Made by a program: the position numbers and the translations under genes
Source: Cupriavidus necator
GTDB taxonomy: Bacteria > Pseudomonadota > Gammaproteobacteria > Burkholderiales > Burkholderiaceae
Assembly (NCBI RefSeq): GCF_016127575.1
Contig: NZ_CP066019.1
Span: forward strand, 2,040,001-2,072,000
Length of the DNA stretch: 32,000 bases
Direction: 5' to 3'
Shown: one piece after another, positions 4,538 to 20,228 of the stretch
Layout of the letters: each line of letters begins with the position of its first letter
Numbering within the stretch: the first letter of the stretch is position 1
Notes under the pieces: generated by a model
Told to the model about the DNA's origin: nothing
The model's input: the letters and a program-made list of their open reading frames with translations, nothing else
The model's database searches: none

Positions 4538-5842
4538 TCAGGCGATTGAGCCTGCGGGCTGCGCCAGCGGCGCGGTCTCTTCCTTCTCCCCGCCGCCGCC
4601 CGCCTGCCCCAGGTCCATACCGGTAGTCTCGGGCAGCAGCACCGCGGCGACCACTACCATCGCGTAGCCGACTCCCGCCACGATGGCGATCGCGATCGGC
4701 AGCGAGGTGTGCCCCGTACTCAGCCACCCCACCGACAGCGGGAACAGCGAACCGATCACCCGGCCGGCGTTATACGAAACGCCATACCCCGTTGCCCGGA
4801 TATCGTTGGGATAAGACTCGGAGATGGTCGCGCCGATGCCCGCGAACACGCCCTGCATCAGGATGCCGAGCGGGAAGCCAAGGAACAGCATCGACGTATT
4901 CGACACCGGGATCACCATATAGACCAGCGCGGCCACGAACGCCCCGACCGCAAAGGCGATGTAGGTCAGCCGCCGGCCCCAGCGGTCGGTGGCGTAGGCG
5001 CCCGCCACGTAGCCGATCAGTGAGCCGATAATGGTGACCGCCAGGTAAGAACTGGTGCCGAACACCGACAGGCCGCGCTCGGTCTTGAGGAAGGTCGGCA
5101 ACCACGTGGCGATGGCGTAGTACGCGCCCAGCATCCCGCCCGACAGCAGGCTGCACAACAAGGTCTTGGACAGCAGCGGCCCACGGAACAGCCGGCCCAG
5201 GCCTGCCAGCGCCGCCCCCTGCCGGCCGGCCGCCCGGCTCTTCAGGAAGATTTCCGGCTCTTCCAGGTTGCGGCGCAGGTAGACCACCACCAGCGCCGGC
5301 AGGATGCCGAGGAAGAAGCAGACCCGCCACGCCGTCTCCGCCGGCAGCACGCTGAATGCGATCGCGTACACGATGGCCGCCGCGCCCCAGCCGAAGGAAT
5401 AGCTGCTGGCGGTAAAGCCCGAGTATTTGCCGCGATGGACCGGATTGCGGATCATCTCCGTCACCAGCACCATGCACAGCGACGACTCCCCGCCAAACCC
5501 CAGGCCCTGGATCATGCGGAACAGCATCAGCTGCTCCGGCGACTGCGCCAGCCCGCACAGGAAGCAGGCCCCCGCGAACACCACGATGGTCCAGCGCAGC
5601 ACCCGCACGCGCCCGTAGCGGTCGGCCAGGATGCCGGCCCCGATCGCACCAACCAGCGACGACACCAGCGTCCAGGTGACGATGGCGCCCGCTGTCGACT
5701 TGCTCATGCCCCACTGCCCCAGCAGCGTGGAGATAAGGAACGAATAGATCATGAAGTCGAAGACATCGACCGCATGCCCAAGGAACGCGCCATAGAAGCC
5801 CTTGCGCTCCATGCACGACAAATCACGGAACCAGTCGAACAT
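4538..5842 (-). CDS. MFS transporter (metabolite:H+ symporter type), substrate unknown
   Basis: 434 aa, about 12 hydrophobic segments, MFS loop motif ADRYGRVRVL, GGGAGGG RBS. Lies 33 nt downstream of the amidase gene. Confidence 0.85.
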   Translation of the reverse strand: MFDWFRDLSCMERKGFYGAFLGHAVDVFDFMIYSFLISTLLGQWGMSKSTAGAIVTWTLVSSLVGAIGAGILADRYGRVRVLRWTIVVFAGACFLCGLAQSPEQLMLFRMIQGLGFGGESSLCMVLVTEMIRNPVHRGKYSGFTASSYSFGWGAAAIVYAIAFSVLPAETAWRVCFFLGILPALVVVYLRRNLEEPEIFLKSRAAGRQGAALAGLGRLFRGPLLSKTLLCSLLSGGMLGAYYAIATWLPTFLKTERGLSVFGTSSYLAVTIIGSLIGYVAGAYATDRWGRRLTYIAFAVGAFVAALVYMVIPVSNTSMLFLGFPLGILMQGVFAGIGATISESYPNDIRATGYGVSYNAGRVIGSLFPLSVGWLSTGHTSLPIAIAIVAGVGYAMVVVAAVLLPETTGMDLGQAGGGGEKEETAPLAQPAGSIA

Positions 5843-5875: not shown

Positions 5876-7372
5876 TTAGTTGTTGTGATCCGCCGGCAGG
5901 ACAGACGGCCGCGGCGGGGGCCGGAACGCGTAGCCCGCGCCTTCCAGCAGGCTGGCAAAGCGCAGCGCGGTGAGATCCCGGTAGCGGCCGGCGACGATCT
6001 GCACGCCGACCGGCAGGCTACTGGTGCCCGGCCCGATCGGCGCCACCGCTGAAGGCAGCCCGCACAGCCCGGAATGGCCGGCCCAGAACAATTGCGTGGT
6101 CATCGGCTGCGCGCGGCCGTTGACGGTGAGGCTGCGCTGCCAGGGCTGGCCGGCCTCGTCCAGCGCGAAGGCCGTGGTGGCTGCGGCCGGGCACAGCAGC
6201 ACGTCATAGGTGGAGAAGAAGCGCCGCCACGCGGTGGCAAAGCGTTCGCGGGCCACCTGCAGGCGCAGCCAGTCGCGATGCCTCAGGGTCGCGCCGGTGT
6301 ACTGGAGGGTGGCGTAGGCATGGTCGTCCGCGGCGGCTGTGGCGGTGCGGTTCAACGCGTCGGCATAGGCCGCATCGTCCATGTGCACCGCGGTGGTTGC
6401 GCGCAGCAGCGTCACGTAGACGTGCCACAGTTCGGCCGCATCGAAATCCGGCCGCACATGCCAGTCCACGCGCGCGCCCTGCCCGGCCAGCCAGTAGCCC
6501 AGTTTTTCGATCTGCGCGGCAACCTCGCCGTCGGATTCAGCCTGCGCATGGGTGGGCAACACCGCGACGCGGAAGTCGGCCAGCCGTCGGTGCGGACACT
6601 CTGGCAGATCAAGGCGGTAGGGCAGCGCCTCGTCGCCGTGCGGGCCGGCAATGGCGCGCAACACCGGTTCCAGGTCGCGCGCGCTGCGGGCCAAGGGGCC
6701 GGCGACATTGATGTCCTGTTCGCCGAAGCGCGCCGGACCCACCCCGTGGCCTGCCAGCGGCACCAGGCCATGGCTGGGCTTGAGCGAGAAGATGCCGCAG
6801 TAGTGGGCCGGATTGCGCAGCGAGGAGCCGATATCGGAGCCCACATCGAAATATGACAGGCCGGCGCACACCGCCGCCGCGCTGCCGCCGGACGAGCCGC
6901 CCGGCGTGCGCGACGGATCGTGCGGATTGCGGGTGGTGCCGTAGATGGCGTTGTAGCTTTGCCAGTCACGCAGGCCGAGCGGAACGTTGGTCTTGCCGAG
7001 CAGGACGGCGCCGGCATCGCGCAGGCGCTGCACTACCGCGGCGTCGTGCTGGGCCGCACGGCCCTGCATGGCCGGATTGCCGCAAGTGGTCGGCCAGCCG
7101 GCGACGTCGAACGACTCCTTGACCGAGAACGGCACGCCGTCGAGTACCCCGCGCGCTTGCCCTGCCCGGCGCCTTCGGTCGCTTTCCAGCGCCGCGGCGC
7201 GGGCGGCATCGAAATCTGACAGCACCAGCGCATTGATGATGCCGTGCCAGTCGTGCCACGCGGCTTCGCAGCCATCCACCAGTTCTACCGCGGAGACTTC
7301 GCCGGCGGCGAGCCGCTGTGCCACCTCCCACAACGGCGGAAAACCGCCGGGAGCCCGGTCGGACAGGTTCAC
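5876..7372 (-). CDS. Amidase-signature family amidase
   Basis: 498 aa. GGSSGGSAAAV signature and upstream FSVKESFDVAG (catalytic Lys region). GTG start preceded by AAGGAG. Confidence 0.9.
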   Translation of the reverse strand: MNLSDRAPGGFPPLWEVAQRLAAGEVSAVELVDGCEAAWHDWHGIINALVLSDFDAARAAALESDRRRRAGQARGVLDGVPFSVKESFDVAGWPTTCGNPAMQGRAAQHDAAVVQRLRDAGAVLLGKTNVPLGLRDWQSYNAIYGTTRNPHDPSRTPGGSSGGSAAAVCAGLSYFDVGSDIGSSLRNPAHYCGIFSLKPSHGLVPLAGHGVGPARFGEQDINVAGPLARSARDLEPVLRAIAGPHGDEALPYRLDLPECPHRRLADFRVAVLPTHAQAESDGEVAAQIEKLGYWLAGQGARVDWHVRPDFDAAELWHVYVTLLRATTAVHMDDAAYADALNRTATAAADDHAYATLQYTGATLRHRDWLRLQVARERFATAWRRFFSTYDVLLCPAAATTAFALDEAGQPWQRSLTVNGRAQPMTTQLFWAGHSGLCGLPSAVAPIGPGTSSLPVGVQIVAGRYRDLTALRFASLLEGAGYAFRPPPRPSVLPADHNN

Positions 7373-7452
7373 ATCGACTCCTTGTCATTATCCGAGCCGG
7401 CAGCGGCGCGGTGGGGGCGTATAGGACAAGCTTCGGGAAGTGCTGCGAATGC

Positions 7453-7471
7453 GTTGGTATACTATATTCCG
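7453..7471. promoter_or_regulatory. Operator/promoter element GTTGGTATACTATATTCCG upstream of the amidase-MFS unit
   Basis: Exact reverse complement of 14661-14679. Contains the 11-mer GTATACTATAT (7457-7467) also present at 12524-12534. That 11-mer lies 85-95 nt upstream of the GTG start. Confidence 0.55.
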
Positions 7472-7622
7472 TATTGAACGGAGCGCAAGCGAAAGTGTCA
7501 CGCGCGAGCGCGCTGAAGCACGCCAGCAGTGGAAAGCGTAGAAGGTGAATGGTCGGCAGGCAGAACGCCTGCCAGGAGGCAGCGGCGGCGTGCTGACGCC
7601 GCCGGCTCTCAGTCAGGCTGGA

Positions 7623-7799
7623 TCAGCAATGGCCACGGCGTGGGGCGCGGCCGCCCAGCGCCAGGAAGAAGCGGCCGATATCGCGCAGGCGCAGCGGCAG
7701 CAGCGGCGTGGCATGGCGGACGGCATTGCGCGCGGCAAAGTGGTGCAACAGTTGCTGGCCGACGGGTTGCGAAAGATAGCGTTGCTCAGGCGACTGCAT
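7623..7799 (-). CDS. Possible small ORF (58 aa, MQSPEQRYLSQPVGQQLLHHFAARN...), unknown function; below the ORF-track cutoff
   Basis: ATG at 7799, TGA at 7623-7625, high GC3, weak AGGGA RBS, and a GTATAC site at 7831-7836 upstream. The overlapping plus-strand ORF 7545..8051 has similar composition, so coding status is unresolved. Confidence 0.25.
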   Translation of the reverse strand: MQSPEQRYLSQPVGQQLLHHFAARNAVRHATPLLPLRLRDIGRFFLALGGRAPRRGHC

Positions 7800-7938
7800 G
7801 GTAAATCCCTATTGATCTGGAATGCCTACAGTATACCTAAATTGGTGCAATGCGCCATGGCGGCGCATGCAATGCCCAGTTGCCGGGCATGCAACGAAAT
7901 GCTGGAAACGGGAGAGGAAAAACCGGGGCCCAACGCCC

Positions 7939-8646
7939 TCAGGCCGCCTCTGCCCTGCCCTGCCCGTCCACCGGCAAGTCTGCCGCCTTGGCGGCACTGT
8001 AGACATGGCGCGCGGCCAGCAAGGCGGCAAGGTCGGCATCCCCGGCGATGACTGCCTGCAGGATCTGGGCGTGTTCATCCCAGTTCTGACGGGCGCGAAC
8101 CACGTTGGCCGGGCCGAACAGCACCGCGGTGCGCTCGCGCAGCGAACGCATCATTTCCTGCAGCACGCTGTTGGCGGCTATGGTGCCGAGCACCTCATGG
8201 AAGCGGGTATTGAGGGCGAGCAACTCATCCGCGCGGCCCTGGGCGGCGGCATCCATGCCCTGGCGCAGCACGCTCTCCAGCTCAGCAACCAGCGCCGGGT
8301 CGCGGCGCTGCGCGGCGAGCTTGGCGTTGAGCCCTTCCAGCGTCGCGCGCACCTCCACCATCTCGCGCGCGATCACTGGCGACAGGCTGGCAACGGTTGC
8401 GCCGCGGCGCGGCTCGATCACCACCAGGCCCTCGCTGGCCAGCGCGCGCAGCGCCTCGCGCACCGGGATGCGCGACACGCCCAGTTCGGCCGACAGCTTG
8501 TTTTCCACCAGCCGTTCACCTGGCGCGTACTTCCCGTTCAGGATGCCTTCACGCAGCTTGTCGGTGACAAGGGCGAACAGCGGCGAGTGGCTGGCACCGA
8601 GGCTCAGCGGCTCGGCGGGCGCGGCAGGAGATGGAGTGAGAGACAT
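7939..8646 (-). CDS. GntR-family transcriptional regulator, FadR/FCD subfamily
   Basis: 235 aa. wHTH KLSAELGVSRIPVREALRALASEGLVV followed by an all-helical C-terminal domain. Confidence 0.9.
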   Translation of the reverse strand: MSLTPSPAAPAEPLSLGASHSPLFALVTDKLREGILNGKYAPGERLVENKLSAELGVSRIPVREALRALASEGLVVIEPRRGATVASLSPVIAREMVEVRATLEGLNAKLAAQRRDPALVAELESVLRQGMDAAAQGRADELLALNTRFHEVLGTIAANSVLQEMMRSLRERTAVLFGPANVVRARQNWDEHAQILQAVIAGDADLAALLAARHVYSAAKAADLPVDGQGRAEAA

Positions 8647-8683
8647 GGGTCAGCAAAGGCGTAAGCGGAAAGGCTGGCATCAT

Positions 8684-8709
8684 TGTATACCAGCCGTTCC
8701 CTGTATACC
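8684..8709. promoter_or_regulatory. Two direct TGTATACC half-sites (8684-8691, 8702-8709) just upstream of the GntR start
   Basis: Both carry the GTATAC core seen in the other operator candidates. They sit in the 71-nt gap between the reductase stop and the GntR start. Confidence 0.4.
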
Positions 8710-8717
8710 GCCATGTC

Positions 8718-9716
8718 TTAACAATGCTGGAAGGTGAAGCTGTCCGCATAAATGTGATCCGTACTGGCGCCGCTCGCCAGGAAAGCGGTGCGCGCGTCTC
8801 GGATCATATTGGGAGAACCGCACAAATAGATGGCGTGCTCGCTCAGGTCACCCAGGTCAGCCAGCGCCGCATCGTGCACGTAACCGCGCCGTCCTTGCCA
8901 TCCTGCGCCGGCACGGGACAGCACCGGTACGTACTGGAAGTCATACAGCCGCTCGCCCCAGGCGGGGATATCGGAGTGCAGGTACAGGTCTTCCGGCTTC
9001 CGCATGCCCCAGTAGAGCGACACCGGTGGGCAGTCGGGATCGTCCATCAGCGATTCGAGGATGGCCTTGATCGGCGCCAGCCCGGTGCCGGTGGCCACCA
9101 TCAGCAGTGGCCGGTAATCCATGGCGCGGTAGAAGAAGCTACCGAGCGGCAGTTCGACGTCAACGGCGTCGCCCGCTTTCATCTGCGGCAGGATGCCGTC
9201 GGTGAAGGCGCCGCCCGGGATGCGCCGCACATGCAGGTCGACCCGTCCGTCGCGCGGCACCGATGCCATCGAGAAGCTGCGCGCGCGCCCATCCTCGCTC
9301 AATAGCTTCAGGTACTGGCCGGGACGATAGTCGAGCGCACCAGCGTCCGGCACTTCCAGTTCGATATGCAAAACGTCAGCCGACAACGCGCGCACGGCCT
9401 GCACCAGCGCCCGATAACGCGCCGGCTCGGCGCAGGCCTCGTCCTCGCGCGCCGTGCTGATGACCAGGTCGCCCAGCGGCTGCGCCTGGCAGGCCAGCGC
9501 GTAGCCGGCGGCGGCCTCGTCCGGGGCCAGACCGAACGGTTCCTCGTCATACCGCACCTGCCCGGCCAGCAGCCGGATACGGCAGGTGCCGCAGCCGCCC
9601 AGCTGGCAGTCGCGCGGCAAGGCGATACTGGCGCGCCCGGCGGCCTGCAGCAGGGTCTCGCCGCGTTCGACAAAAAAGACCTGCTGCGTTTCGGCGATCT
9701 GGATGCGGTACGACAT
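8718..9716 (-). CDS. [2Fe-2S] ferredoxin-FAD/NAD(P)H oxidoreductase (N-terminal plant-type ferredoxin fused to an FNR module; MmoC/DmpP/BenC/AscD-type architecture)
   Basis: 332 aa from MSYRIQ (GGAGG RBS). CQLGGCGTCRIRL...LACQ cluster motif, RSFSMAS FAD motif, MVATGTGLAPI NAD motif. The listed ORF 8718..10031 is a 5' over-extension across the GlcG gene. Confidence 0.85.
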   Translation of the reverse strand: MSYRIQIAETQQVFFVERGETLLQAAGRASIALPRDCQLGGCGTCRIRLLAGQVRYDEEPFGLAPDEAAAGYALACQAQPLGDLVISTAREDEACAEPARYRALVQAVRALSADVLHIELEVPDAGALDYRPGQYLKLLSEDGRARSFSMASVPRDGRVDLHVRRIPGGAFTDGILPQMKAGDAVDVELPLGSFFYRAMDYRPLLMVATGTGLAPIKAILESLMDDPDCPPVSLYWGMRKPEDLYLHSDIPAWGERLYDFQYVPVLSRAGAGWQGRRGYVHDAALADLGDLSEHAIYLCGSPNMIRDARTAFLASGASTDHIYADSFTFQHC

Positions 9717-9724
9717 GGCGCCTC

Positions 9725-10204
9725 CTACTTCTTGATATCGGCCTGCACCAACACCTTGAGGTCCTGCGGCGCCAGCAGCTCGGCCAGCGCCAGCAGCGCG
9801 GCCAGCCCGGCCTGCGTGTCCTGCTCGCCATTGCCGCCGGACAGGCCGATGCCGCCGATCACCTCGTCGTTGACGACAATCGGGAAGCCGCCCACGAACG
9901 CGGCGAACTTGCCCTCGAAGCTCCACTGGATGCCGAATGCCTCGTTGCCTGGCAGTGCCGGCCCGTTGGGCGGCGTGGTGAACAGGTGCGTGGAGCGCTT
10001 GTGGCCCGCGGCCGTGAAGGCCTTGTTCCATGCGATCTGCGGCCCGGTGATGCGGGCGCCGTCCATGCGCTCGAGCGCGAGCGGATAGCCGCCCTCGTCG
10101 ACCACGCAGATCGACTCCAGCACGCCGATTTCCTCCGAGCGCCGGATCGCGGCTGCAACCATATGGCGCGCCTCGCGCAGTTCCAGCTTGATGGCTTTTT
10201 TCAT
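9725..10204 (-). CDS. GlcG/HbpS-like (DUF336) heme-binding family protein
   Basis: 159 aa from MKKAIKLELREARHMV. GGxPIVVNDEVIGGIGLSGG motif. AGGAG RBS. The listed ORF 9725..11233 is an over-extension into the ALDH gene. Confidence 0.85.
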   Translation of the reverse strand: MKKAIKLELREARHMVAAAIRRSEEIGVLESICVVDEGGYPLALERMDGARITGPQIAWNKAFTAAGHKRSTHLFTTPPNGPALPGNEAFGIQWSFEGKFAAFVGGFPIVVNDEVIGGIGLSGGNGEQDTQAGLAALLALAELLAPQDLKVLVQADIKK

Positions 10205-10233
10205 GTCTCTATGACTCCTTGTGACGGCCGGGC

Positions 10234-11679
10234 TCAGGCGCCGCGGTAGACCGTCTTGACCTGCGTATAGAACTCCAGGCCGGTGCGGCCCGACTCGCGG
10301 AAGGTCGAGGTGCTCGACCGCTTTACCCCGCCAAAGGGCGCGTTGACCAGGTTGCCGGTGGTGGTGCGGTTGACCTTGACCGTGCCCGCCTCGATGTCCG
10401 TGGCGAAGTGGTGGATGTAGCGCGGGTTGCTGGTGACGATGGCCGCCGCCAGGCCGTACTCGGTGTCGTTCGCCTTGGCGATGGCGTCGGCGTAGTCGGT
10501 GAAGCCCAGGATGGCGATCACCGGCCCGAAGACCTCCTCGCGCGCGATCCGCATCTGCTGGGTCACGTCGGTAAACACGGTCGGCGCCACGTAGTAGCCC
10601 TTGTCGAAGTCGCCGCCGGCAAGGCGCGCGCCGCCGCACAGCAACGTCGCCTCGGACTTGCCGATATCGATGTAACGCAGCACCGTTTCCAGCTGCTTGT
10701 GCGACGCCAGCGGCCCGAGGTCCATCCCGGCCGTCATGCCGCTGCCGACCTTGAGGGTGGCGACCTTCGCCAGCAACCGCTCTGTGTATGCCGCCTTGAC
10801 GGACTCGGCCACCAGCACGCGGCTGGTCCCGGTGCACGCCTGCCCCGACAGCGAGAAGCCGCCCTTGATGGTCAGGTCGACGGCGCGGTCGAGGTCGGCG
10901 TCTTCCATCACGATCAGCGGGTTCTTGCCGCCCAGCTCCATCTGCGTGCGCGTGGTCAGCGGCACGGCGCGGTGGATCTGCTCGCCGGCGCGCGACGAGC
11001 CGGTGAACGAGATCGCCCGCACGGCCGGCGCCTCGGTGATGGCAGCGCCGATTTCCGCCGCGCTGCCGGTGATGAAATTCAGCACGCCCTTGGGCAGGCC
11101 GGCCTTGACCAGCGCCTCGGCCAGCCGGTAGCCCGACAGCGGCGCCTCGGACGACGGCTTGAACACTACTGTGTTGCCGGTCACCAGCGCCGGGGCGATC
11201 TTGCGGGCCGGGATCGATACCGGGAAGTTCCACGGCGCGATCACGGTCACCACGCCCAGCGGCTCGCGCTGGCTGTAGACGAGTTGGTCGGGGTCGTCGT
11301 TCGGGAACACCTCGCCGGTGAAGGTCTGCCCTTCCACTGCATAGAAGCGCAGCGTCTGGGCCGAGCGCAGCACCTCGTCGCGGGCCAGCGCCAGCGCCTT
11401 GCCTTCCTCGCGGGTCAGCTCGGCGGCGATGCTATCGGCGTTGGCCTCGAGATGGTCAGCGGCACGGTTGAGGATGGCGGCGCGCTTGCCGACCGGGGTC
11501 TTTTTCCAGCCGGCGAACGCTGCCGCGGCGGCGGCGACGGCCGCCTGCGCGTCCACCGCGGCAGACGCCTGGAAGCGGCCCACAATATCGGCGGTATCAG
11601 CCGGGTTGACGTTATCGAAGGTGCGGCCCGACTGGCAGGCCGTCCATTCGCCGTCGATATGGTTGAGGAATACAGTCAT
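10234..11679 (-). CDS. NAD(P)+-dependent aldehyde dehydrogenase (2,5-dioxovalerate/KGSADH-like subgroup)
   Basis: 481 aa. VIAPWNFP, FTGSSRAG, ELGGKNP and catalytic-Cys region GQACTGTSR. Confidence 0.9.
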   Translation of the reverse strand: MTVFLNHIDGEWTACQSGRTFDNVNPADTADIVGRFQASAAVDAQAAVAAAAAAFAGWKKTPVGKRAAILNRAADHLEANADSIAAELTREEGKALALARDEVLRSAQTLRFYAVEGQTFTGEVFPNDDPDQLVYSQREPLGVVTVIAPWNFPVSIPARKIAPALVTGNTVVFKPSSEAPLSGYRLAEALVKAGLPKGVLNFITGSAAEIGAAITEAPAVRAISFTGSSRAGEQIHRAVPLTTRTQMELGGKNPLIVMEDADLDRAVDLTIKGGFSLSGQACTGTSRVLVAESVKAAYTERLLAKVATLKVGSGMTAGMDLGPLASHKQLETVLRYIDIGKSEATLLCGGARLAGGDFDKGYYVAPTVFTDVTQQMRIAREEVFGPVIAILGFTDYADAIAKANDTEYGLAAAIVTSNPRYIHHFATDIEAGTVKVNRTTTGNLVNAPFGGVKRSSTSTFRESGRTGLEFYTQVKTVYRGA

Positions 11680-11704
11680 CGTCGATCCGGTTGCGCTGCG
11701 GCGC

Positions 11705-12436
11705 TCAGGCCGCCATGTCGAGTTCGGGCAGCGGCAGCTCTTTCTCGACGTAGTCGTGATAGAGCGCCGTCGTGTACAGCAGCCGCATCTGCGCGCCGAT
11801 CTCGCAGATCTTCAGGCAGCGCTGCTGCAGCTCCGGCGTGTTGGCGTGCTCCAGCACGATCTGGTAGCCGCGCTCGCCGTGGATCTCGTCCGAGACGATA
11901 TGCAGGTCGAAGAATTCGACTTCCTCGTCAGTGAACTGGTACTTGTCGCGCAGCGTCGGGGTCTGCTTGCGGTAGATCGACGGCACCTGCGACTCCAGCC
12001 CGACCACCAGCCCGGCTACCGCGACGATGGGGTCTTCACGCATGGCCACGGCGTAGCACCAGCTCTGCAGGCCACGGGTGGTGGGCGACATATTGTCCGG
12101 GTCGATCACGCGCTCGCGGGTGGTGCCGCAGGCTTCGGCGAAGCGGATCAGCAGGTCGGTATGGCGGTCGCCGCCGATCTCTTCCTCATACATATTGGCG
12201 AGCAGGAAATCCTTGGCTTCGGTATAGCGGTCCGGGGTGCGGGCGTAGATGTAGCCCAGGTAATCCGCGAACGGGCCTACGTAGTGATAGTGGTTCTCGG
12301 CCCAGCGTGCGAGATGGGCGCGGGTCAGCTTGCCGCTGGCCCAGGCCACGCTGAACGGCGCCTTGTTGGCGCTCTTGCCTTTGATGGCTTCTTCGAGGGC
12401 GGCACGGAATGCTTCGCGGTTCATCAGTTCGGCCAT
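11705..12436 (-). CDS. TenA/PqqC-family, heme-oxygenase-like fold protein with a complete candidate diiron ligand set (putative HDO-type oxidase)
   Basis: 243 aa. PqqC-like WAENHYHYV. E85-x6-H92, E148, H179-x3-D183-x2-H186. AGGAG RBS. Confidence 0.85.
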   Translation of the reverse strand: MAELMNREAFRAALEEAIKGKSANKAPFSVAWASGKLTRAHLARWAENHYHYVGPFADYLGYIYARTPDRYTEAKDFLLANMYEEEIGGDRHTDLLIRFAEACGTTRERVIDPDNMSPTTRGLQSWCYAVAMREDPIVAVAGLVVGLESQVPSIYRKQTPTLRDKYQFTDEEVEFFDLHIVSDEIHGERGYQIVLEHANTPELQQRCLKICEIGAQMRLLYTTALYHDYVEKELPLPELDMAA

Positions 12437-12514
12437 GGCGGAGGCTCCTGGTTGGCGAGGTGGGGCGATTAAGTGGGTTGGATGCCGGGGTCGCTTCGCA
12501 AATCGATCAGCCCT

Positions 12515-12545
12515 TGCATGGTTGTATACTATATACAGCCATGCA
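12515..12545. promoter_or_regulatory. 31-bp near-perfect palindrome TGCATGGTTGTATACTATATACAGCCATGCA; operator candidate upstream of the oxidase-ALDH-GlcG-reductase unit
   Basis: 13 of 15 arm positions pair. It contains GTATACTATAT (12524-12534), 88-98 nt upstream of the start at 12436. Confidence 0.55.
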
Positions 12546-12612
12546 GCGACGACAAGGGCTTCGTTGACTAATCATGTAAGTGTTTACCCGTCGGTGTCGC
12601 GGGCAATGGCGC

Positions 12613-13545
12613 TCAGGCCGCGCGACGCTCCGCCGCGCCGGCGATGCGGGACCAGGCGAAGCCCGCCAGCGCCACGTCCTCCAGCCCTACGCCGACTGAC
12701 TTGTAGATCACGATGTCGTCGTCCCGCTGGCGCGGCGACACCTTGCCAAGGACCACCTCGCCCAGCTCGACAATCTTCTCGCGCGGAAGAGCCTGCGAAT
12801 CGGCCAGCACGATGTCGCCCGCCTCGCGCACGGACTGCGGGCGCCACTCGACCACCACGGCGGCGGCGCGGCGCAGCGCGGTGTCGTCCAGTTCACGCGT
12901 ATGCGGCAGGCTGGAGCCGATGGCGGCAACGAAAGCGCCAGGCCGGAGCGACGCGCCCGCGAACAGCGGCGTGGTCGCGCGCGACGCCGTGACGACGATA
13001 TCGGCCTCGGCCACGGCAGCATCGGGCTCCGCCAGCGTGACCGGGATGCCGCACAGCGCCGACAGCCGCACCGCCATGCCGGCATCGGCGTGCGGATCGG
13101 ACACCAGGATGCGCGCCAGCCCGAGCGTCTCGCTGAGCTGGCGCGCGTGCTGCACGCCCTGCGTGCCGGCGCCGAACAGCGCCAGCGTGCGCGAGCCGGA
13201 CCGGGCCAGCCGCTGCGCCGCGAGCGTGGTGCAGGCAGCCGTGCGCAGGCGCGTGATGGCGCCAGCGTCGAACGAAGCGAGCGGACGGCCGTCGTCGGTC
13301 GAGAAGATCAGGATGACAAAGGAGAACTGGCCGTTGATGGTGGTGTAGACCTTGGCGCCCGCCACGCCCTGCTGCGGGATCACCGCACCCAGCGTGGACA
13401 GCTTGACGCCGCCCGCCTCGGTGCGAATGCGCTCCTGCATCGCGGCGTCGCCGCGACCGAAGCTGGAAAAAGCGGCTTCCATGACTTGCCGGGCATCGTC
13501 CGGGCTGACGTGGGCATCGATCATCGCGTCTGTAATGTGCTGCAT
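12613..13545 (-). CDS. Ornithine cyclodeaminase / mu-crystallin family NAD(P)-dependent enzyme (cyclodeaminase or ketimine/imine reductase)
   Basis: 310 aa from MQHITDAMID (GGAG RBS). ITRLRTAA and LFGAGTQG Rossmann motif, YKSVGVGLEDV near the C-terminus. The listed ORF 12613..14124 is an over-extension. Confidence 0.85.
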   Translation of the reverse strand: MQHITDAMIDAHVSPDDARQVMEAAFSSFGRGDAAMQERIRTEAGGVKLSTLGAVIPQQGVAGAKVYTTINGQFSFVILIFSTDDGRPLASFDAGAITRLRTAACTTLAAQRLARSGSRTLALFGAGTQGVQHARQLSETLGLARILVSDPHADAGMAVRLSALCGIPVTLAEPDAAVAEADIVVTASRATTPLFAGASLRPGAFVAAIGSSLPHTRELDDTALRRAAAVVVEWRPQSVREAGDIVLADSQALPREKIVELGEVVLGKVSPRQRDDDIVIYKSVGVGLEDVALAGFAWSRIAGAAERRAA

Positions 13546-13604
13546 GGGAACTCCGCTGGTTGGGATGGAGACAGGAAAGACAGTGATCTCTGCGGGCCAG
13601 AGCG

Positions 13605-14405
13605 TCACGAAAAGGCAGTGCGGCCGAGCACACCGAGCGCCCCGGCAGCGCAAAGACCCAGCAGCAGCCGGCGCACCGCCCCGGGCGAGACGTGCCCGCG
13701 CAACCGGTTCGAGAGCGCGAAACCCGCAAACAGGAATGGCGCAAGGGCCGCCGCCAGCACCAGCTGCGGCAAACCGAAGCGCCCCGCCAGCGCCAGCATG
13801 GAGAGCGACAGCACCGCGCCGCCGGCCAGGATGCAACCCATCGTCGCGCGCATCGGCGCCGGCGCCATGTGCTGCATGACCAGCGCGAACGGCGGCGCAC
13901 CGGCCGAGGTGATCGTTCCCATGAAGCCCGACACGGTGCCGGCGATGACCACATTGGGCGAGGTCGGCAGCAGGCGCCAGCCCAGCAGGCTCAGCGCCAC
14001 GGCGGCGAGTATCGACACTGAGAACAGCACCCCCAGCGGCCCCGGCGCCAGCCACGCCATGGTCAGCACCGCTGCCGCCCCGCCAAGCGCGCGCCCGATC
14101 AGGGCGAAGCCTGCGATGCGCCACGCGATCGCCTCCCGCTCACGCAGCGCGCCCATCAAAGAGAGACAGCAGCCCATCGCCAGCAGCGGTCCCGGCACGA
14201 GGTCCGGGAAGAAGATTGCGCCCAGCGGCGCCGAAAGCATCGCGAAGCCGATCCCGCCCACGCCTTGCAGGCAAGCGCCCACCAGGATGAGCGCACCCAT
14301 CCATAGATAAGTGGAGACGGAGAGGCCTGTGGGGAGCAGGGAGTACAACGTGGCGGGCAAGGCAGAGGTCATGGCAGCAAGTCGGGACAGCAGCTTGGAG
14401 GGCAT
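13605..14405 (-). CDS. Second TauE/SafE (DUF81) family anion permease
   Basis: 266 aa, polytopic and glycine-rich, with two-fold repeat organisation like the tauE product at 3735. Start uncertain (alternative ATG 14372); no clear SD for either. Confidence 0.7.
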   Translation of the reverse strand: MPSKLLSRLAAMTSALPATLYSLLPTGLSVSTYLWMGALILVGACLQGVGGIGFAMLSAPLGAIFFPDLVPGPLLAMGCCLSLMGALREREAIAWRIAGFALIGRALGGAAAVLTMAWLAPGPLGVLFSVSILAAVALSLLGWRLLPTSPNVVIAGTVSGFMGTITSAGAPPFALVMQHMAPAPMRATMGCILAGGAVLSLSMLALAGRFGLPQLVLAAALAPFLFAGFALSNRLRGHVSPGAVRRLLLGLCAAGALGVLGRTAFS

Positions 14406-14485
14406 ACGAAGCGGGTTGGAGGGACGGCCTTATGCGGGCATGCCTCCTGCTCATATCGCACTTCGCGAGGAAGCTGCGCTTAACG

Positions 14486-14491
14486 GTATAC
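14486..14491. promoter_or_regulatory. Additional GTATAC core (CGGTATACAG), 81-86 nt upstream of the TauE-like gene start
   Basis: Same hexamer core and similar distance to the start as the other sites. On its own it is weak. Confidence 0.3.
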
Positions 14492-14660
14492 AGTCTACAT
14501 GTCGCGGCGGCGACCTTGCAAATCACTCACCTGTCCGCGCACCACTTGGAGGACGCCACATACCGCCGCAGGCCCAATAAATGTGCGACGTTCGGGCAAC
14601 TTGCACCAGTCTGGGCTAGGCGTAATTCCGGATGAAAAACCTGTTGTCGCGAGATTGCAT

Positions 14661-14679
14661 CGGAATATAGTATACCAAC
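14661..14679. promoter_or_regulatory. Operator/promoter element CGGAATATAGTATACCAAC in the divergent region between the TauE-like gene and the large permease gene
   Basis: Exact reverse complement of 7453-7471. The 11-mer ATATAGTATAC (14665-14675) lies 68-78 nt upstream of the ATG at 14743, in the same orientation relative to the downstream gene as the two other copies. Confidence 0.55.
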
Positions 14680-14742
14680 ACCGGATTCCGAAGCTGAGAG
14701 GGAATCCGGGCCCCACAACCCCTCCGCCCCAAGGGAGTCTTC

Positions 14743-16281
14743 ATGTCACAACAAGTCGTGATCGGTGCCGCGCACTGGATCTATCTGTCAGGGGTAGCAG
14801 TCATCGTGCTGACGATGATCCTGCGCGCCAATGTTGTCGTGCCGTCGATCGTTGGCACCGCCCTGGTCGTGTTTGCGCTTACCGGCAGCCCGGTTTCGGC
14901 GCTGGGCGGGGTGTTTTCCGCGAGCCTGGTTGCCGCCAAGGAGCTGTTCAATATCTTCCTTGTGATCGCGTTCATGACGGCGCTGCTCAATGCGCTCAAA
15001 ACGCTGCGCTCCGACATCCGCATGGTCGAGCCCTTCCGCGTGGTGATGAAGAACGGGCATTCGGCGTTCTTTATCCTGGCGGGCATCACTTACGTCATCT
15101 CGCTGTTCTTCTGGCCAACCCCGGCCGTGCCGCTGGTCTCCGCGATCCTGCTGCCGGCCGCTATCGCGGCGGGGCTGCCGCCGCTGGCGGGCGCGATGGC
15201 CATCGCCATCGCCGGCCAGGGCATGGCGCTGTCATCGGACTATGTGATCGGCGTCGCGCCCGGCATCAGCGCCAAGGCGGCCGGCGCGGCGGTGAGCGCC
15301 GCGGTGGTGGCCGATCGCGCGCTGGCGCTGTCGATCATCACCGGCACGATTGCGCTGTGCCTGGCCTATCTGTCGATGCGCAAGCATATCGTCCCCGCCT
15401 GCGGCACCCTGCTCGACCGCTGGCAGGCGCGCGCCAGCGGCAGCGCCGAGGCGCTGGAAGGCGGCGGTACCTTCGACAAGGCCGAGATCGCCAGGGGCAC
15501 CGCCCACGCCGAGCCGCTGGCCAGCGACAGCAATATCGAGGCAAGCCTGGCGATGGTGGCCCGGCGCCGGGTGAAGTGGTCGAAATGCTTCGCGATCGTA
15601 ACGCCGATTGCTTTCCTCGCAGTGGTCGCCGTCATGGTGCTGCCCAAGCTGGGTACCGGCGTGCAGGACCTCAAGGGCGGCGATGCGGCTGCGCTGGTCG
15701 GCGGCGTCGCGGCGGTGCTGATGATGCTGGCGACGCTGGCCGCGGAAGGCCCGCGCCGCATGCTCGACGTGTGCCCGGAGCACATCACCGACGGCTTTGT
15801 CTTTGCCTTCAAGGCGATGGGCTCGGTGTTGCCGATCGCGGGCTTTTTCTTCGTCGGCGCCGGCGAAACCGCCGCGCAGATCCTGGGCCTGCCGCCGGGC
15901 AAGGCGCCGAGCCTGCTGTTCGAGCTGATCCAGGCCTACCAGCACATGATCCCGGACAACCACGTGCTGGTCGCCTTCGGGGTGCTGCTGGTCGGCATGA
16001 TCACCGGCATCGACGGCTCCGGTTTCGCAGGGCTGCCGCTGACCGGCACGCTGGCCGGCGCGCTCGGCCCGGTGGTCGGCTTCGACCCCGCGACGCTGGC
16101 CGCGGTGGGCCAGATGGGCGCGGTCTGGACCGGCGGCGGCACGCTGGTGGCGTGGTCGTCGCTGATCGCGGTGGCCGGCTTCGCCCGCGTGCCGGTGCTG
16201 GACGCGGTGCGCGCGCTGCTGATCCCGGTGCTGATCGGGCTGGCATGCTCCACCGTCGCCGCGATGGTGTTGTGGTCGTAG
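14743..16281 (+). CDS. Large polytopic permease, probably ion-transporter (IT) superfamily-like (GntP/DcuC/NhaC-type architecture), substrate unknown
   Basis: 512 aa: two hydrophobic halves of about 200 aa separated by a hydrophilic loop of about 80 aa. Related AGLPxL(A/T)G segments occur in both halves. GGGAG RBS. Confidence 0.8.
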   Translation: MSQQVVIGAAHWIYLSGVAVIVLTMILRANVVVPSIVGTALVVFALTGSPVSALGGVFSASLVAAKELFNIFLVIAFMTALLNALKTLRSDIRMVEPFRVVMKNGHSAFFILAGITYVISLFFWPTPAVPLVSAILLPAAIAAGLPPLAGAMAIAIAGQGMALSSDYVIGVAPGISAKAAGAAVSAAVVADRALALSIITGTIALCLAYLSMRKHIVPACGTLLDRWQARASGSAEALEGGGTFDKAEIARGTAHAEPLASDSNIEASLAMVARRRVKWSKCFAIVTPIAFLAVVAVMVLPKLGTGVQDLKGGDAAALVGGVAAVLMMLATLAAEGPRRMLDVCPEHITDGFVFAFKAMGSVLPIAGFFFVGAGETAAQILGLPPGKAPSLLFELIQAYQHMIPDNHVLVAFGVLLVGMITGIDGSGFAGLPLTGTLAGALGPVVGFDPATLAAVGQMGAVWTGGGTLVAWSSLIAVAGFARVPVLDAVRALLIPVLIGLACSTVAAMVLWS

Positions 16282-16363
16282 GCGGCCGCAAGCAACAGCC
16301 AGGCCCCTCCGATTTTTTCGACAATTCATGAGGCCGGGCGGCCAGCCCGGCAGGAACCGCGCC

Positions 16364-16705
16364 ATGCCGACAGTCACTTTCCACAAGCAGGGCCAGACCT
16401 TCGTCGACGAGGTCAAACCCCAGACCAACCTGGTCGTCCGCGCCGGGATCCGCCAGTTCCCCTACCCCAACCTGCGCTACGAGTGCGGCATGGGCAAGTG
16501 CTCCAAATGCGCCTGCCGCGTGATCGCCGGCGCCGAACACCTGCCGCCGCCCAACTGGAAAGAGAAAAAGCAACTCGGCGAGCGGCTCGAACAGGGCTAC
16601 CGGCTGGCCTGCCAGCTCTGGATCGAGCATGACATCGAACTGGCCCAGGACGACCTGCCCGCCCAGGCGCCTGCCATCGTGGCCACGGCCGGCGCGGATG
16701 TCTGA
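16364..16705 (+). CDS. [2Fe-2S] ferredoxin (small, about 113 aa)
   Basis: MPTVTF start with AGGA 8 nt upstream. CGMGKCSKCAC ... RLACQ. KEKK motif shared with the second ferredoxin. The listed ORF starts earlier, at 16328. Confidence 0.8.
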   Translation: MPTVTFHKQGQTFVDEVKPQTNLVVRAGIRQFPYPNLRYECGMGKCSKCACRVIAGAEHLPPPNWKEKKQLGERLEQGYRLACQLWIEHDIELAQDDLPAQAPAIVATAGADV

Positions 16706-16706
16706 C

Positions 16707-17030
16707 ATGTTCGTCCTTCTCACCAGCCGCCCCGGTCAGTTCCGCACCGAGCCCACCGCGGGCATGACCGCGGTCGAGGCATACGACTACGTCTTCTATG
16801 GCAAGCGCACGGCGCGCTTTGTCATCGCGGAACTGGCCGCCGACACCAAGGTGCGGGTGATGGAAGAAACGCCGCCCGGCATCGTCAACCTGGTGTCGAC
16901 CAAGTTCCTCGACAAGTACGCCACGCTGGAAGCCGCCCGCGTCGCGCTGCGCGAGCTGGCCAGCTTCGGCAGCATGGACATCGCCCTGGTGCCCGCCCCG
17001 GTCGCCATGGCAGGCGCTCCTGACTACTAA
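16707..17030 (+). CDS. Small hypothetical protein (about 107 aa), no family recognised, wedged between two ferredoxin genes
   Basis: High GC3. ATG sits 1 nt after the ferredoxin stop. An alternative ATG at 16698 overlaps that stop by 8 nt. Confidence 0.6.
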   Translation: MFVLLTSRPGQFRTEPTAGMTAVEAYDYVFYGKRTARFVIAELAADTKVRVMEETPPGIVNLVSTKFLDKYATLEAARVALRELASFGSMDIALVPAPVAMAGAPDY

Positions 17031-17056: not shown

Positions 17057-17359
17057 ATGATCCAGATCACCTTCCTCACCAACCACGGCAAGACGGTCAG
17101 CGCGCCCGTCAACAGCAATCTGCTGCGCGTGTCGCTGCGCGAGCAGGGCGGCATCCCTTTCAAGTGCGGGGGCGGCCTGTGCGGCACCTGCAAATGCCGC
17201 ATCGAAAAGGGCCACGAGCATACAGACGCGGTCAAGCCGAAGGAAAAGAAACTGCTGACCGAGGAGGAGCTGGCGACGGGGTTCCGGCTGGCCTGCCAGA
17301 CTTTTATCGATGGGGATATCGCGGTGTCATGGCAGCCCAGGGAGACGATGCGCGGGTGA
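17057..17359 (+). CDS. [2Fe-2S] ferredoxin (100 aa), paralog of 16364..16705
   Basis: CGGGLCGTCKC ... RLACQ and KEKK motif, with the same C-x4-C-x2-C-x-C ... C spacing as the first copy. Confidence 0.85.
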   Translation: MIQITFLTNHGKTVSAPVNSNLLRVSLREQGGIPFKCGGGLCGTCKCRIEKGHEHTDAVKPKEKKLLTEEELATGFRLACQTFIDGDIAVSWQPRETMRG

Positions 17360-17445: not shown

Positions 17446-19167
17446 CTACCGCCGCCTCGCCCCCACCAGACCCGCCACCTCATCCAGCATCGCCATGTCC
17501 ACCGGCTGCGACAGGTCCAGCGCCAGCGTGTGCCGGTAGTAGGGGCTCAAGTCCAGCCCTACCCCCAGCCCCAGCACTTCCACATCCCGCAGCGCCTCAT
17601 GCCGCGCCACCACGGCCTTCAGGTGGTTGTCGAGGTAGCAGGCGTCGTTGGCCTGCCCGGTCGCGGTATCCATGGGACTGCCGTCGGACACCACCACCAG
17701 GATGCGGCGCGCCTTGCCGCTGGCGTGCAGCCGCGCGCAGGCCCACTCCACCGCCTCGCCGTCCACGCCTTCGCGGAACAGGTCGGCCTTGAGCAGTGCG
17801 GCGATGTCGGTGCGCGCGCGCCGCCAGCTTCGCTGCGCGTCCTTGAACACCATATGGCAGGTCTCGTTGAGCCGGCCAGGGTGCTGCGGGCGGCCGCGCG
17901 CGAGCCAGTCGGCGCGGGCGCGGCCGCCGTTCCAGGCGTTGGTGGTGAAGCCGAGCACCTCGGTGGCCACGCCGGCCTGGTCGAGTGCGCGCGTGAGCAT
18001 GTCGATCAGCAGCGTGAGCGGCTCGGCCTGCGCCTTCATCGAGCCGGAGCAGTCGATCAGGAAGCCGACCACGCAGTCGGCATGAGCCTTGTGCGCTTCC
18101 AGGCGGAAGAGCCGGCGCTCGGAGGGGGAGCAGACCAGCTGCGCCAGGCGGCGGCCGTCGATACGGCCGCTTTCCTCGCCGAAGGACCAGCCGTCCACGC
18201 GCGGCTGCGACAGCGCGGCGCGCAGCCGGCGCGCCAGCCGGGCGATGTTCACGCCCGCGCGCGCGATGCGTGCGTCAAGCCGCGTGCGGTACTCGTCCAG
18301 CAAGGCGCGGCGCACCAGCGTGGCGGCGCGCACTTCGCGGTCGTAGCGGGTGGTGAAGACGCGGTAGCCGTCGGTGGCGTCGGCCAGCACGCGGCTGTGG
18401 CCGCTGTCGGCCAGTGCAAAGTCTTCCGCAGGCGGTTCGTCGAAATCCAGCCACAGCGCAAACCCGGCGCGCGCAGCCGAGGCTGCGTTGTCGTCGTCTT
18501 CGCCGGCAAGCGGGGCTTCGGTACGGATCATCTGCGCCACCGCGCGCGCCAGCGCCAGTGCGTACGCGGCGTAGGCGGCCTGGTCGTGGCGTTGCGCGCG
18601 CAGGCCGGCCAGCGCGGTGCCGAGCACCGGCACGATGGCGGCGCGCGTGGCTTCGATCAGGTCTTCGGTCTCTTCCAGCACCGGCTCACCCGTCAGGCGC
18701 GACCACGACACCTGCGCCACGGTATAGAGCAGGATGCCGAGATGCCCCTCGGTCAGCCCGGAGCGATGGAAGGCCCGCGACCACGCCATGAAGCGGTGGC
18801 GCAGGTTGGCCGCCACGCCGGCCATGCCGCGCGGCAGGCGGGTCTCGCAACGCAGCTGCTCAAGCAGTTCGAAGACCAGGCGCTCGACCGCATCTGCCGG
18901 GCACAGCTGCCGATGCAGCGCGGCGTCGGAATGCGCCTGGCGCAGGGCGGCACCATCGGCCGCGCCGCGCAGGCAGGTGGCCGTGTCAGTTTCCAGGTCC
19001 GTGCGCAAGTGCGGCGCATGCTGCGGCACCGGGCGCATCGCGCGCCAGAGCTGGCCGTCGCGGAAATGCAGCGCCGCATCGCCAGTGATCGCGCGCACCG
19101 CGGCACCGGACAGCTCATCCTGCCGCTGGCGCCGGCGCAACTGCTGCGCGACCGTGGCCGCACTCAT
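17446..19167 (-). CDS. cobT: CobT-like vWA-domain protein (aerobic cobaltochelatase CobT family)
   Basis: 573 aa from MSAATVAQQL. Its ATG overlaps the cobS stop (ATGA at 19164-19167). MIDAS motif DCSGSM, and VVSDGSPMD...YLDNHLKAVV typical of CobT. The listed ORF extends to 19272. Confidence 0.8.
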   Translation of the reverse strand: MSAATVAQQLRRRQRQDELSGAAVRAITGDAALHFRDGQLWRAMRPVPQHAPHLRTDLETDTATCLRGAADGAALRQAHSDAALHRQLCPADAVERLVFELLEQLRCETRLPRGMAGVAANLRHRFMAWSRAFHRSGLTEGHLGILLYTVAQVSWSRLTGEPVLEETEDLIEATRAAIVPVLGTALAGLRAQRHDQAAYAAYALALARAVAQMIRTEAPLAGEDDDNAASAARAGFALWLDFDEPPAEDFALADSGHSRVLADATDGYRVFTTRYDREVRAATLVRRALLDEYRTRLDARIARAGVNIARLARRLRAALSQPRVDGWSFGEESGRIDGRRLAQLVCSPSERRLFRLEAHKAHADCVVGFLIDCSGSMKAQAEPLTLLIDMLTRALDQAGVATEVLGFTTNAWNGGRARADWLARGRPQHPGRLNETCHMVFKDAQRSWRRARTDIAALLKADLFREGVDGEAVEWACARLHASGKARRILVVVSDGSPMDTATGQANDACYLDNHLKAVVARHEALRDVEVLGLGVGLDLSPYYRHTLALDLSQPVDMAMLDEVAGLVGARRR

Positions 19168-20180: not shown

Positions 20181-20228
20181 GCCATCGGCACTGCGGCAAG
20201 CGGAGCAATCCGCGTGACGCCGTGCGCG

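Follow-up and report, generated by a model that had tools for sequence, protein, structure and literature searches.

The stretch from about 4.5 to 17.4 kb of a 32-kb window of the Cupriavidus necator genome (contig NZ_CP066019.1, positions 2,040,001 to 2,072,000; coordinates below count from the start of this window) is very probably the dip cluster in its Cupriavidus form, a set of genes for the breakdown of dipicolinic acid, and the GTATAC hexamers in its spacers are very probably the operators of a DipR repressor encoded at 7939-8646. We put the probability of this reading at roughly 90%. Dipicolinic acid is a compound of bacterial spores. An initial annotation of the window had proposed that a GTATAC-cored operator joins four transcription units into one regulon, controlled by a FadR-subfamily GntR protein encoded at 7939-8646. 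Indeed, this protein has the Pfam GntR and FCD domains and is an orthologue of the characterized repressor DipR (PMC11472048). One regulon over several units is also supported, but the units number six rather than four; the small gene at 7623-7799, dipH, had been overlooked. A tool-free reading of raw sequence had recovered an experimentally validated regulon.

DipR of Alcaligenes faecalis JQ135 has been described as a GntR/FadR repressor of the dip cluster (Jiang et al., NAR 2024, PMC11472048). According to that paper, DipR binds 5'-GWATAC-3' boxes at six promoters, as determined by electrophoretic mobility shift assay (EMSA), DNase footprinting and mutagenesis. Two DNase footprints of 23-24 bp were mapped, and replacing the hexamer abolished DipR binding in EMSA. 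DipR is released by dipicolinate but not by dipicolinate isomers; the R63A and R67A proteins lost DNA binding, and H196A and H218A lost the effector response. The paper finds GTATAC in all 30 dip cluster types, from 80 strains, names C. necator N-1, Verticiella sediminum DSM 27279 and Bordetella among the carriers, and cites C. campinensis 23K8 as an isolated dipicolinate degrader (PMC11472048). DipR is ASR91163.1 there, and dipD served as the second BLAST probe for dip clusters. The regulator, its motif, its effector and their spread over the Betaproteobacteria, Cupriavidus included, are already known from this 2024 publication (PMC11472048). The remaining novelty may be limited to the idea of a composite box and to differences in cluster composition.

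We scanned the entire window for GTATAC and found exactly seven copies in 32 kb, at 7457, 7831, 8685, 8703, 12524, 14486 and 14670. Non-coding DNA was defined by a gene map drawn from third-position GC content and Pfam matches. On this map all seven copies are non-coding, as first described, and lie inside 1052 nt of intergenic DNA spanning 7373-14742; none falls in the other 1912 nt of intergenic sequence of the window. The GC content of the window is about 68%. The earlier estimate of about three expected copies was based on mononucleotide composition and is too high: in dinucleotide-preserving shuffles of the window, the mean was 0.91 and the maximum 4, with 0 of 100 reaching seven. Shuffling the 1052 nt of dip spacers yielded 0.17 copies on average and at most 3, and none of 2,000 shuffles reached seven. 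The looser GWATAC variants (GAATAC/GTATTC) also occur seven times, five in coding and two in non-coding DNA. The context of these two, at 4158 and 17384, gives no support, and we excluded them from the site count.

Clustering of this kind might arise by chance or by avoidance of a restriction site, with the palindrome lost from coding sequence but tolerated between genes. In line with such an explanation, GTATAC is palindromic over its 6 bp and generally rare, at 0.06-0.08 per kb outside dip spacers. But seven copies were observed where 0.17 were expected in the same spacers, the other spacers of the window contain none, and the positions of the boxes are orthologous across genera and rearrangements (see below). 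The local shuffles, the conserved positions in rearranged loci and the densities effectively refute this explanation, and we give it almost no weight.

Longer repeats surround three of the hexamers. The 11-mer GTATACTATAT is found exactly at 7457(+), 12524(+) and 14665-14675(-), and the 19-mer GTTGGTATACTATATTCCG at 7453-7471(+) and 14661-14679(-); a scan allowing up to 3 mismatches returned no further match to the 19-mer. An inverted repeat at 12515-12545 has arms of 14 nt each (12515-12528 and 12532-12545), 93% complementary, around a 3-nt spacer. All of this is as the initial annotation had it, including its 31-bp near-perfect palindrome. The 11-mer copies were also correctly placed upstream of first genes in one gene-relative orientation, at 85 nt (7457 to 7372), 88 nt (12524 to 12436) and 68 nt (14675 to 14743) from the start codons. 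The exhaustive scan of the window for GTATAC and the 11-mer bears out the intergenic enrichment.

For comparison with Alcaligenes, we scanned metagenome contigs with the published dipB footprint, which returned four Alcaligenes-like loci. The reference stretch, L083, contains both published footprints. Relative to the published start sites, these lie at -35 to -12 (dipB) and at +1 to -22 (dipA), exactly as PMC11472048 states, and the GntR protein of L083 matches all ten residues that are numbered in PMC11472048. The window regulator is 60% identical to this DipR over 225 aa without a gap (E 7e-96). Its R59, R63, H192 and H214 align with DipR R63, R67, H196 and H218, and all four are invariant among 15 orthologues. 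The closest relatives of the regulator are Cupriavidus proteins with 97-100% identity; orthologues at about 60-76% identity are found in Verticiella, Bordetella, Achromobacter and Variovorax. Judged by its sequence, the 7939-8646 product is the orthologue of DipR in Cupriavidus. Its binding to DNA, its repressor function and its response to dipicolinate would carry over by analogy from the experiments on the Alcaligenes orthologue.

Comparison with L083 further identified orthologues of dipA, B, D, E, F, G, H and J in the window, but not of dipC. L083 ends inside dipJ, and the dipK-M comparison falls outside it. In L083, the dipA-type gene adjoins both published footprints, the dipD-type gene is preceded by a GTATAC box, and the orthologous dipH box is at 10860. 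From the orthology of the regulator, the syntenic neighbours and the similar contexts of the boxes, we infer that the window carries a dip cluster and that the hexamers are its set of DipR operators. The genes of the block are the following.

4538-5842, minus strand: MFS transporter (Pfam MFS_1, 3.5e-43), 33 nt downstream of the amidase gene
5876-7372, minus strand: amidase of the amidase-signature family (Pfam Amidase, 1.4e-85; NCBIfam PRK06170, 2.2e-220)
7623-7799, minus strand: dipH orthologue, 58 aa, 51% identity to the Alcaligenes gene; contains a conserved peptide and is predicted to form its own unit
7927-7945, minus strand: terminator-like hairpin overlapping the dipR stop codon
7939-8646, minus strand: dipR orthologue, winged helix-turn-helix plus FCD (Pfam GntR, 3.5e-20; FCD, 4.1e-25)
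8718-9716, minus strand: dipG orthologue, Fer2-FAD-NAD reductase (BenC-like), 51% identity to the Alcaligenes gene
9725-10198, minus strand: dipF orthologue, HbpS/GlcG-like (Pfam HbpS-like, 1.7e-31), 85% identity over 101 aa to L083 9126-9428
10234-11679, minus strand: dipE orthologue, aldehyde dehydrogenase resembling alpha-ketoglutaric semialdehyde dehydrogenase (Pfam Aldedh, 4.2e-167), 68% identity to Alcaligenes
11705-12436, minus strand: dipD orthologue, haem-oxygenase-like (CADD/PqqC fold) iron enzyme (Pfam Haem_oxygenas_2, 9.3e-37), 83% identity to Alcaligenes
12613-13545, minus strand: gene of the ornithine cyclodeaminase/mu-crystallin family (OCD; Pfam OCD_Mu_crystall, 8.5e-42), downstream of dipA
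13605-14405, minus strand: dipA orthologue, TauE/SafE-family membrane protein (Pfam TauE, 2e-15), 50-53% identity to Alcaligenes
14743-16281, plus strand: dipB orthologue, predicted permease of 512 aa, 66% identity over 511 aa to the Alcaligenes gene
16328-16705, plus strand: dipJ orthologue, 2Fe-2S ferredoxin-like (Pfam Fer2), 75% identity over 61 aa to the start of the Alcaligenes dipJ region
About 16698-17030, plus strand: small gene, K by position only, no family match
17057-17359, plus strand: small gene, L by position only, 2Fe-2S ferredoxin-like (Pfam Fer2)

The seven boxes precede six units: 7457 stands before amidase-MFS, 7831 before dipH, 8685 and 8703 before dipR, 12524 before dipDEFG, 14486 before dipA-OCD and 14670 before dipB-JKL. 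The two copies upstream of dipR agree with the earlier placement of two sites before the regulator's own start. The MFS gene is predicted to form one unit with the amidase gene and co-occurs with it across the related loci described below; dipJ and the two small genes after it are kept in all of these loci. No GTATAC box belonging to dipJKL itself was found, so these genes, which start 46 nt after dipB, probably use the dipB promoter. The terminator-like hairpin at the dipR stop codon fits with dipH having its own promoter; in A. faecalis, dipH is a separate transcription unit (PMC11472048). Boxes and predicted promoters are arranged as follows.

7453-7471, minus strand: DipR box (7457-7462) with flanks before amidase-MFS, 19 bp identical to the dipB box region
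7831-7836: DipR box before dipH, gene-oriented GTATACTGTAGG, with a degenerate second hexamer at +7
8685-8690: proximal DipR box before dipR, gene-oriented GGTATACAAT, overlapped by a predicted -10 TACAAT
8703-8708: distal second dipR box, 18 bp from the proximal one
12515-12545, minus strand: dipD operator, box 12524-12529 within the 31-bp palindrome, with TTGTCG-16-TATAGT at 12555-12528
14486-14491: DipR box before dipA, gene-oriented TGTAGAC-TGTATACC, abutted by a predicted -10 TAGACT
14644-14679, plus strand: dipB operator/promoter, box 14670-14675, TTGTCG-16-TATAGT at 14644-14671 and the 19-mer at 14661-14679

The footprinted orthologues of the window's dipB and dipA boxes are the dipB site TTGAAGATAGTATACCGTTTCAGG (PMC11472048) and the GAATAC site at A. 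faecalis dipA, respectively. At dipB the box context reads GAAgATAGTATACCg in Alcaligenes and GAATATAGTATACCa in the window, or, with other limits, GAAGATAGTATACCG and GAATATAGTATACCA; at dipA it reads TAGATTGAATACC and TAGACTGTATACC.

We then turned to conservation. We fetched 80 loci around orthologues of the regulator (Cupriavidus, Verticiella and Achromobacter) and mapped the window proteins onto them. Cupriavidus loci have the same gene order as the window. Achromobacter loci are rearranged: dipE-G form one unit, dipD stands with JKL, and dipA is followed by dipR. GTATAC lies just upstream of each unit across the 80 loci, the rearranged Achromobacter ones included. Conservation is confined to the box and a few flanking bases, and the rest of the spacers has diverged. 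In 61 loci, the density of GTATAC is 2.45/kb in dip non-coding DNA, 0.056/kb in dip coding DNA and 0.083/kb in the flanks, where an unrelated repeat local to the C. metallidurans / C. pauculus group accounts for most copies. On comparative grounds, the conserved boxes form a clear phylogenetic footprint of a cis-regulatory site. The proposal that GTATAC is the operator of the regulator is thus in line both with the DipR motif 5'-GWATAC-3' (PMC11472048) and with conservation, and the 80 loci together with the Alcaligenes reference independently support the published motif.

Individual boxes differ in how widely they are kept. Before the amidase gene, the consensus GaATATAGTATACC.Ac is conserved in 26 sites, and for the dipD box 60 unique sequences give tGTA.A.aGTATACAA. 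The proximal dipR box is present in nearly all loci that have a separate dipR promoter, at varying distance; in the nearest Cupriavidus loci a conserved 44 nt separate it from the start codon. Only some Cupriavidus loci have the distal dipR box, among them L001, L006, L008 and L026. The centres of the 31-bp dipD palindrome and of the GTATAC box lie 3.5 bp apart; other Cupriavidus have kept the inner TGTATATAGTATACA of the palindrome but not its outer arms (GCATGG/CCATGC).

Two further patterns emerged from the Cupriavidus loci. In the C. metallidurans / C. pauculus group, arrays of three to five GTATAC hexamers (CGTATACG-type repeats) are packed into about 50 bp, roughly 8 kb past dipR, at about 18.8-20.5 kb of L033, L038-L042, L046, L047, L049 and L051. 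The array of L038 (18960-19003) lies between convergent open reading frames, and the arrays appear unrelated to promoters. Genomes of the C. basilensis group have an extra stand-alone dipR'-dipH' pair with GTATAC boxes before both genes (L029-L036, L044 and L052, about 9800-11100). The same genomes contain a second locus with dip structural genes, whose dipR has no upstream box (L054, L056-L061 and L063). Comparison of these loci suggests that the group has two DipR paralogues with one common operator type.

From the layout of the window and the work on JQ135, regulation would proceed as follows. When dipicolinate is absent, DipR would occupy the box at six promoters (amidase-MFS, dipH, dipR, dipDEFG, dipA-OCD and dipB-JKL), contacting it with its DNA-binding domain through its two counterparts of the DipR arginines R63 and R67. 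At each promoter the box overlaps or abuts the predicted -10 element, which would exclude RNA polymerase. Dipicolinate would bind the C-terminal FCD domain, where the histidines equivalent to H196 and H218 are found. The dipicolinate-bound DipR would then leave the DNA, and all units, dipR included, would be expressed.

The promoter positions in this scheme are predicted ones. An independent consensus promoter scan of 7300-14800 returned only two sites, those of dipD and dipB, both TTGTCG-16-TATAGT with the -10 overlapping the box. By eye, candidate promoters can be assigned to the other units: TTGCGC-16-TATAGT at the amidase gene, TTGCAA-18-TAGACT abutting the box at dipA, a TACAAT -10 inside GGTATACAAT at dipR and TATACT within the box at dipH. 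The initial annotation had suggested that operator and promoter overlap at the three TATAGT sites. Two of the three were recovered independently by the scan; at the amidase gene the -35 candidate TTGCGC falls below the threshold of the scan, and the overlap there depends on TATAGT alone.

Given this overlap, we considered that the shared sequences are simply common promoter elements, TATA-rich -10 regions read by RNA polymerase alone. AT-rich hexamers are to be expected in the promoters of a genome with 68% GC, and the -10-like TATAGT, TAGACT and TACAAT do overlap or abut the boxes. However, GTATAC is invariant, whereas its register to the putative -10 varies from overlap on the 5' side to overlap on the 3' side to adjacency, and the hexamer is missing from the remaining 1.9 kb of intergenic DNA of the window. 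Furthermore, DipR binds the orthologous boxes in EMSA and footprinting, and mutation abolishes the binding (PMC11472048). A constant box with a changing -10 register, together with the published binding by the orthologue, led us to reject the idea of a mere -10 element, which we consider very improbable.

We also compared the boxes with the classical FadR-type motif TNGTNNNACNA (Rigali consensus). The boxes do not follow it, being GT-N2-AC rather than GT-N3-AC in an 11-bp palindrome, a point made also in PMC11472048. The GT..AC core noted initially is present, in the form GT-N2-AC, and does not match the classical FadR motif. The FCD domain and the GTATAC core place the system in the GTA-TAC-type GntR/FCD operator class of Atu1419, Bacillus subtilis GntR and UxuR. 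Atu1419 of Agrobacterium fabrum, a GntR/FCD repressor of hydroxycinnamate degradation with the operator ATGTATACAT (PDB 6z74 series), matches the regulator in sequence (E 2e-13). It shares the palindromic GTA-TAC core and the FCD type, and has Arg and His residues equivalent to those of DipR in the alignment in PMC11472048. It differs in effector and regulon; the homology is distant, and the flanks of the 10-bp ATGTATACAT are not conserved in the window. The operator of B. subtilis GntR, ATACTTGTATACAAGTAT, has the core TTGTATACAA in common with the dipD site of the window. This protein, too, is of the FadR subfamily and binds a palindrome that overlaps the promoter of a catabolic operon, from which its substrate releases it, but it is non-orthologous, and DipR controls six promoters, not one.

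Between A. faecalis JQ135 and the window, the likeness extends to an orthologous GntR/FadR repressor with all four functional residues kept, the same box at the dipA, dipB, dipD, dipH and dipR promoters, six units, and autoregulation, which is predicted in the window. Unlike in A. faecalis, all boxes of the window are perfect GTATAC and none is GAATAC, two boxes stand before dipR, and dipJ and the next two genes follow dipB without a promoter box of their own. Genome GC is 68% here and 57% in Alcaligenes. The gene content differs as well, and dip cluster types do vary in gene composition (30 types; PMC11472048). Alcaligenes dipC (L083 5192-6694) encodes a protein of the gamma-glutamyltranspeptidase (GGT) family; this gene is missing in the window and in 79 of the 80 loci. 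Compared with Alcaligenes, the window adds the amidase-MFS unit with its own box and the OCD gene behind dipA. The amidase is not in the 13-gene Alcaligenes dip cluster, as far as that has been mapped, and the OCD gene has no match in L083. Among the 80 loci, a boxed amidase was confined to the C. necator and C. gilardii groups; the OCD gene was seen in Cupriavidus, in Verticiella (L055, V. sediminum DSM 27279) and in one Achromobacter locus (L074).

Several points weigh against our reading of the window as a DipR-controlled dip cluster. The absence of dipC and the additional amidase-MFS and OCD genes mean that the lower pathway may differ. At only 60% identity to DipR, the regulator could have shifted in effector or DNA specificity. 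Finally, the starts mapped in A. faecalis by rapid amplification of cDNA ends place the boxes at about -46 to -7, as calculated from L083, so that the picture of a box overlapping the -10 is a prediction that may fail at some promoters. The exact geometry of box and promoter thus differs between promoters, and perhaps between genera as well.

The first two of these points bear on the possibility that the same regulator and boxes serve another effector or pathway compound, for example, a pyridine-carboxylate or a related N-heterocycle, and that the system is DipR-like in mechanism only. Besides the 60% identity and the altered composition of the cluster, with no dipC, an added amidase-MFS unit and an OCD gene unmatched in L083, the two DipR paralogues of the C. 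basilensis group suggest that specificity has diverged within the family. On the other hand, the enzyme whose substrate is dipicolinate, DipD, shares 83% identity with its Alcaligenes counterpart, and the effector histidines are invariant. C. necator N-1 is a listed dip carrier and C. campinensis 23K8 a degrader (PMC11472048), and in our set the cluster is present in C. campinensis LMG 19282 (L041). We consider another effector improbable, and dipicolinate remains our preferred assignment.

Within a DipR-controlled dip cluster, the additional genes may contribute to the pathway. Possibly the regulon was enlarged in the C. necator and C. gilardii groups by placing an amidase-MFS operon behind a copied dipB operator/promoter, as the shared 19-mer would suggest. 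The amidase may stand in for the missing GGT-type hydrolase DipC, a non-orthologous replacement of the amide-hydrolysis step.

The operator itself may be larger than the hexamer. We scored every offset around the perfect boxes in the 80 loci, and in seven of eight site classes the highest-scoring second match to GTATAC stands exactly 7 bp off the perfect one. In the window, examples of such degenerate hexamers are GAATAT at 14663-14668 and, on the dipA strand, GTAGAC at 14493-14498. These secondary hexamers score 2.9-5.0 of 6 matches against a background of 1.5. They stand at -7, the promoter-distal side, for dipB, dipA/OCD, dipD and amidase, and at +7, the gene side, for dipH; for Achromobacter dipE the two sides are about equal. 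The dipR sites showed no secondary hexamer in this scoring. When 40 gene-oriented sites from different genera and promoters were pooled, G was found at -7 in 29, A at -5 in 28 and A at -3 in 32. A -10 hexamer could explain part of this signal, but not the G at -7. The pattern in the aligned sites points to an operator that may be a 13-bp tandem composite, GWAKAY-N-GTATAC, rather than the 6-bp GWATAC; the available part of PMC11472048 describes only the 6-bp motif and the footprints of 23-24 bp. If true, a composite operator could set the orientation, affinity or stoichiometry of DipR and would fit footprints of that length. We regard the composite operator and the enlarged regulon of the C. 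necator and C. gilardii groups, as a joint proposal, as tentative and somewhat doubtful. The second box at a 7-bp offset, the boxed amidase-MFS unit without dipC and the pairing of dipR with dipH could guide work on the recycling of spore dipicolinate.

Several products of the cluster deserve mention. DipB has no sequence match in Pfam, NCBIfam or PDB. It is conserved in all dip loci and may represent an undescribed transporter family, presumably for dipicolinate uptake. The gene product initially called a PqqC-like oxidase is DipD, a component of the dipicolinate 3-monooxygenase according to PMC11472048; its closest solved relatives are 4-aminobenzoate synthase (CADD) and PqqC. DipD is 83-100% identical from Alcaligenes to Cupriavidus, and its neighbours are much less conserved, at 50-85%. 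The dipH product, a conserved protein of 56-64 aa without a family match, carries the motif Y[LF]xxPVGxQLLxHYAxRDAVRHATPL[LI]P. The peptide PVGxQLLxHYAxRDAVRHATPL is common to Cupriavidus, the paralogue loci (L044 10943-11119) and Alcaligenes (L083, about 10636-10827, minus strand). dipH adjoins dipR throughout Cupriavidus, but not in Alcaligenes. Beyond the dip cluster, at 17446-21074 on the minus strand, the window encodes CobT-like and CobS-like (AAA/VWA) proteins and an IclR-family regulator, in a region without a GTATAC box.

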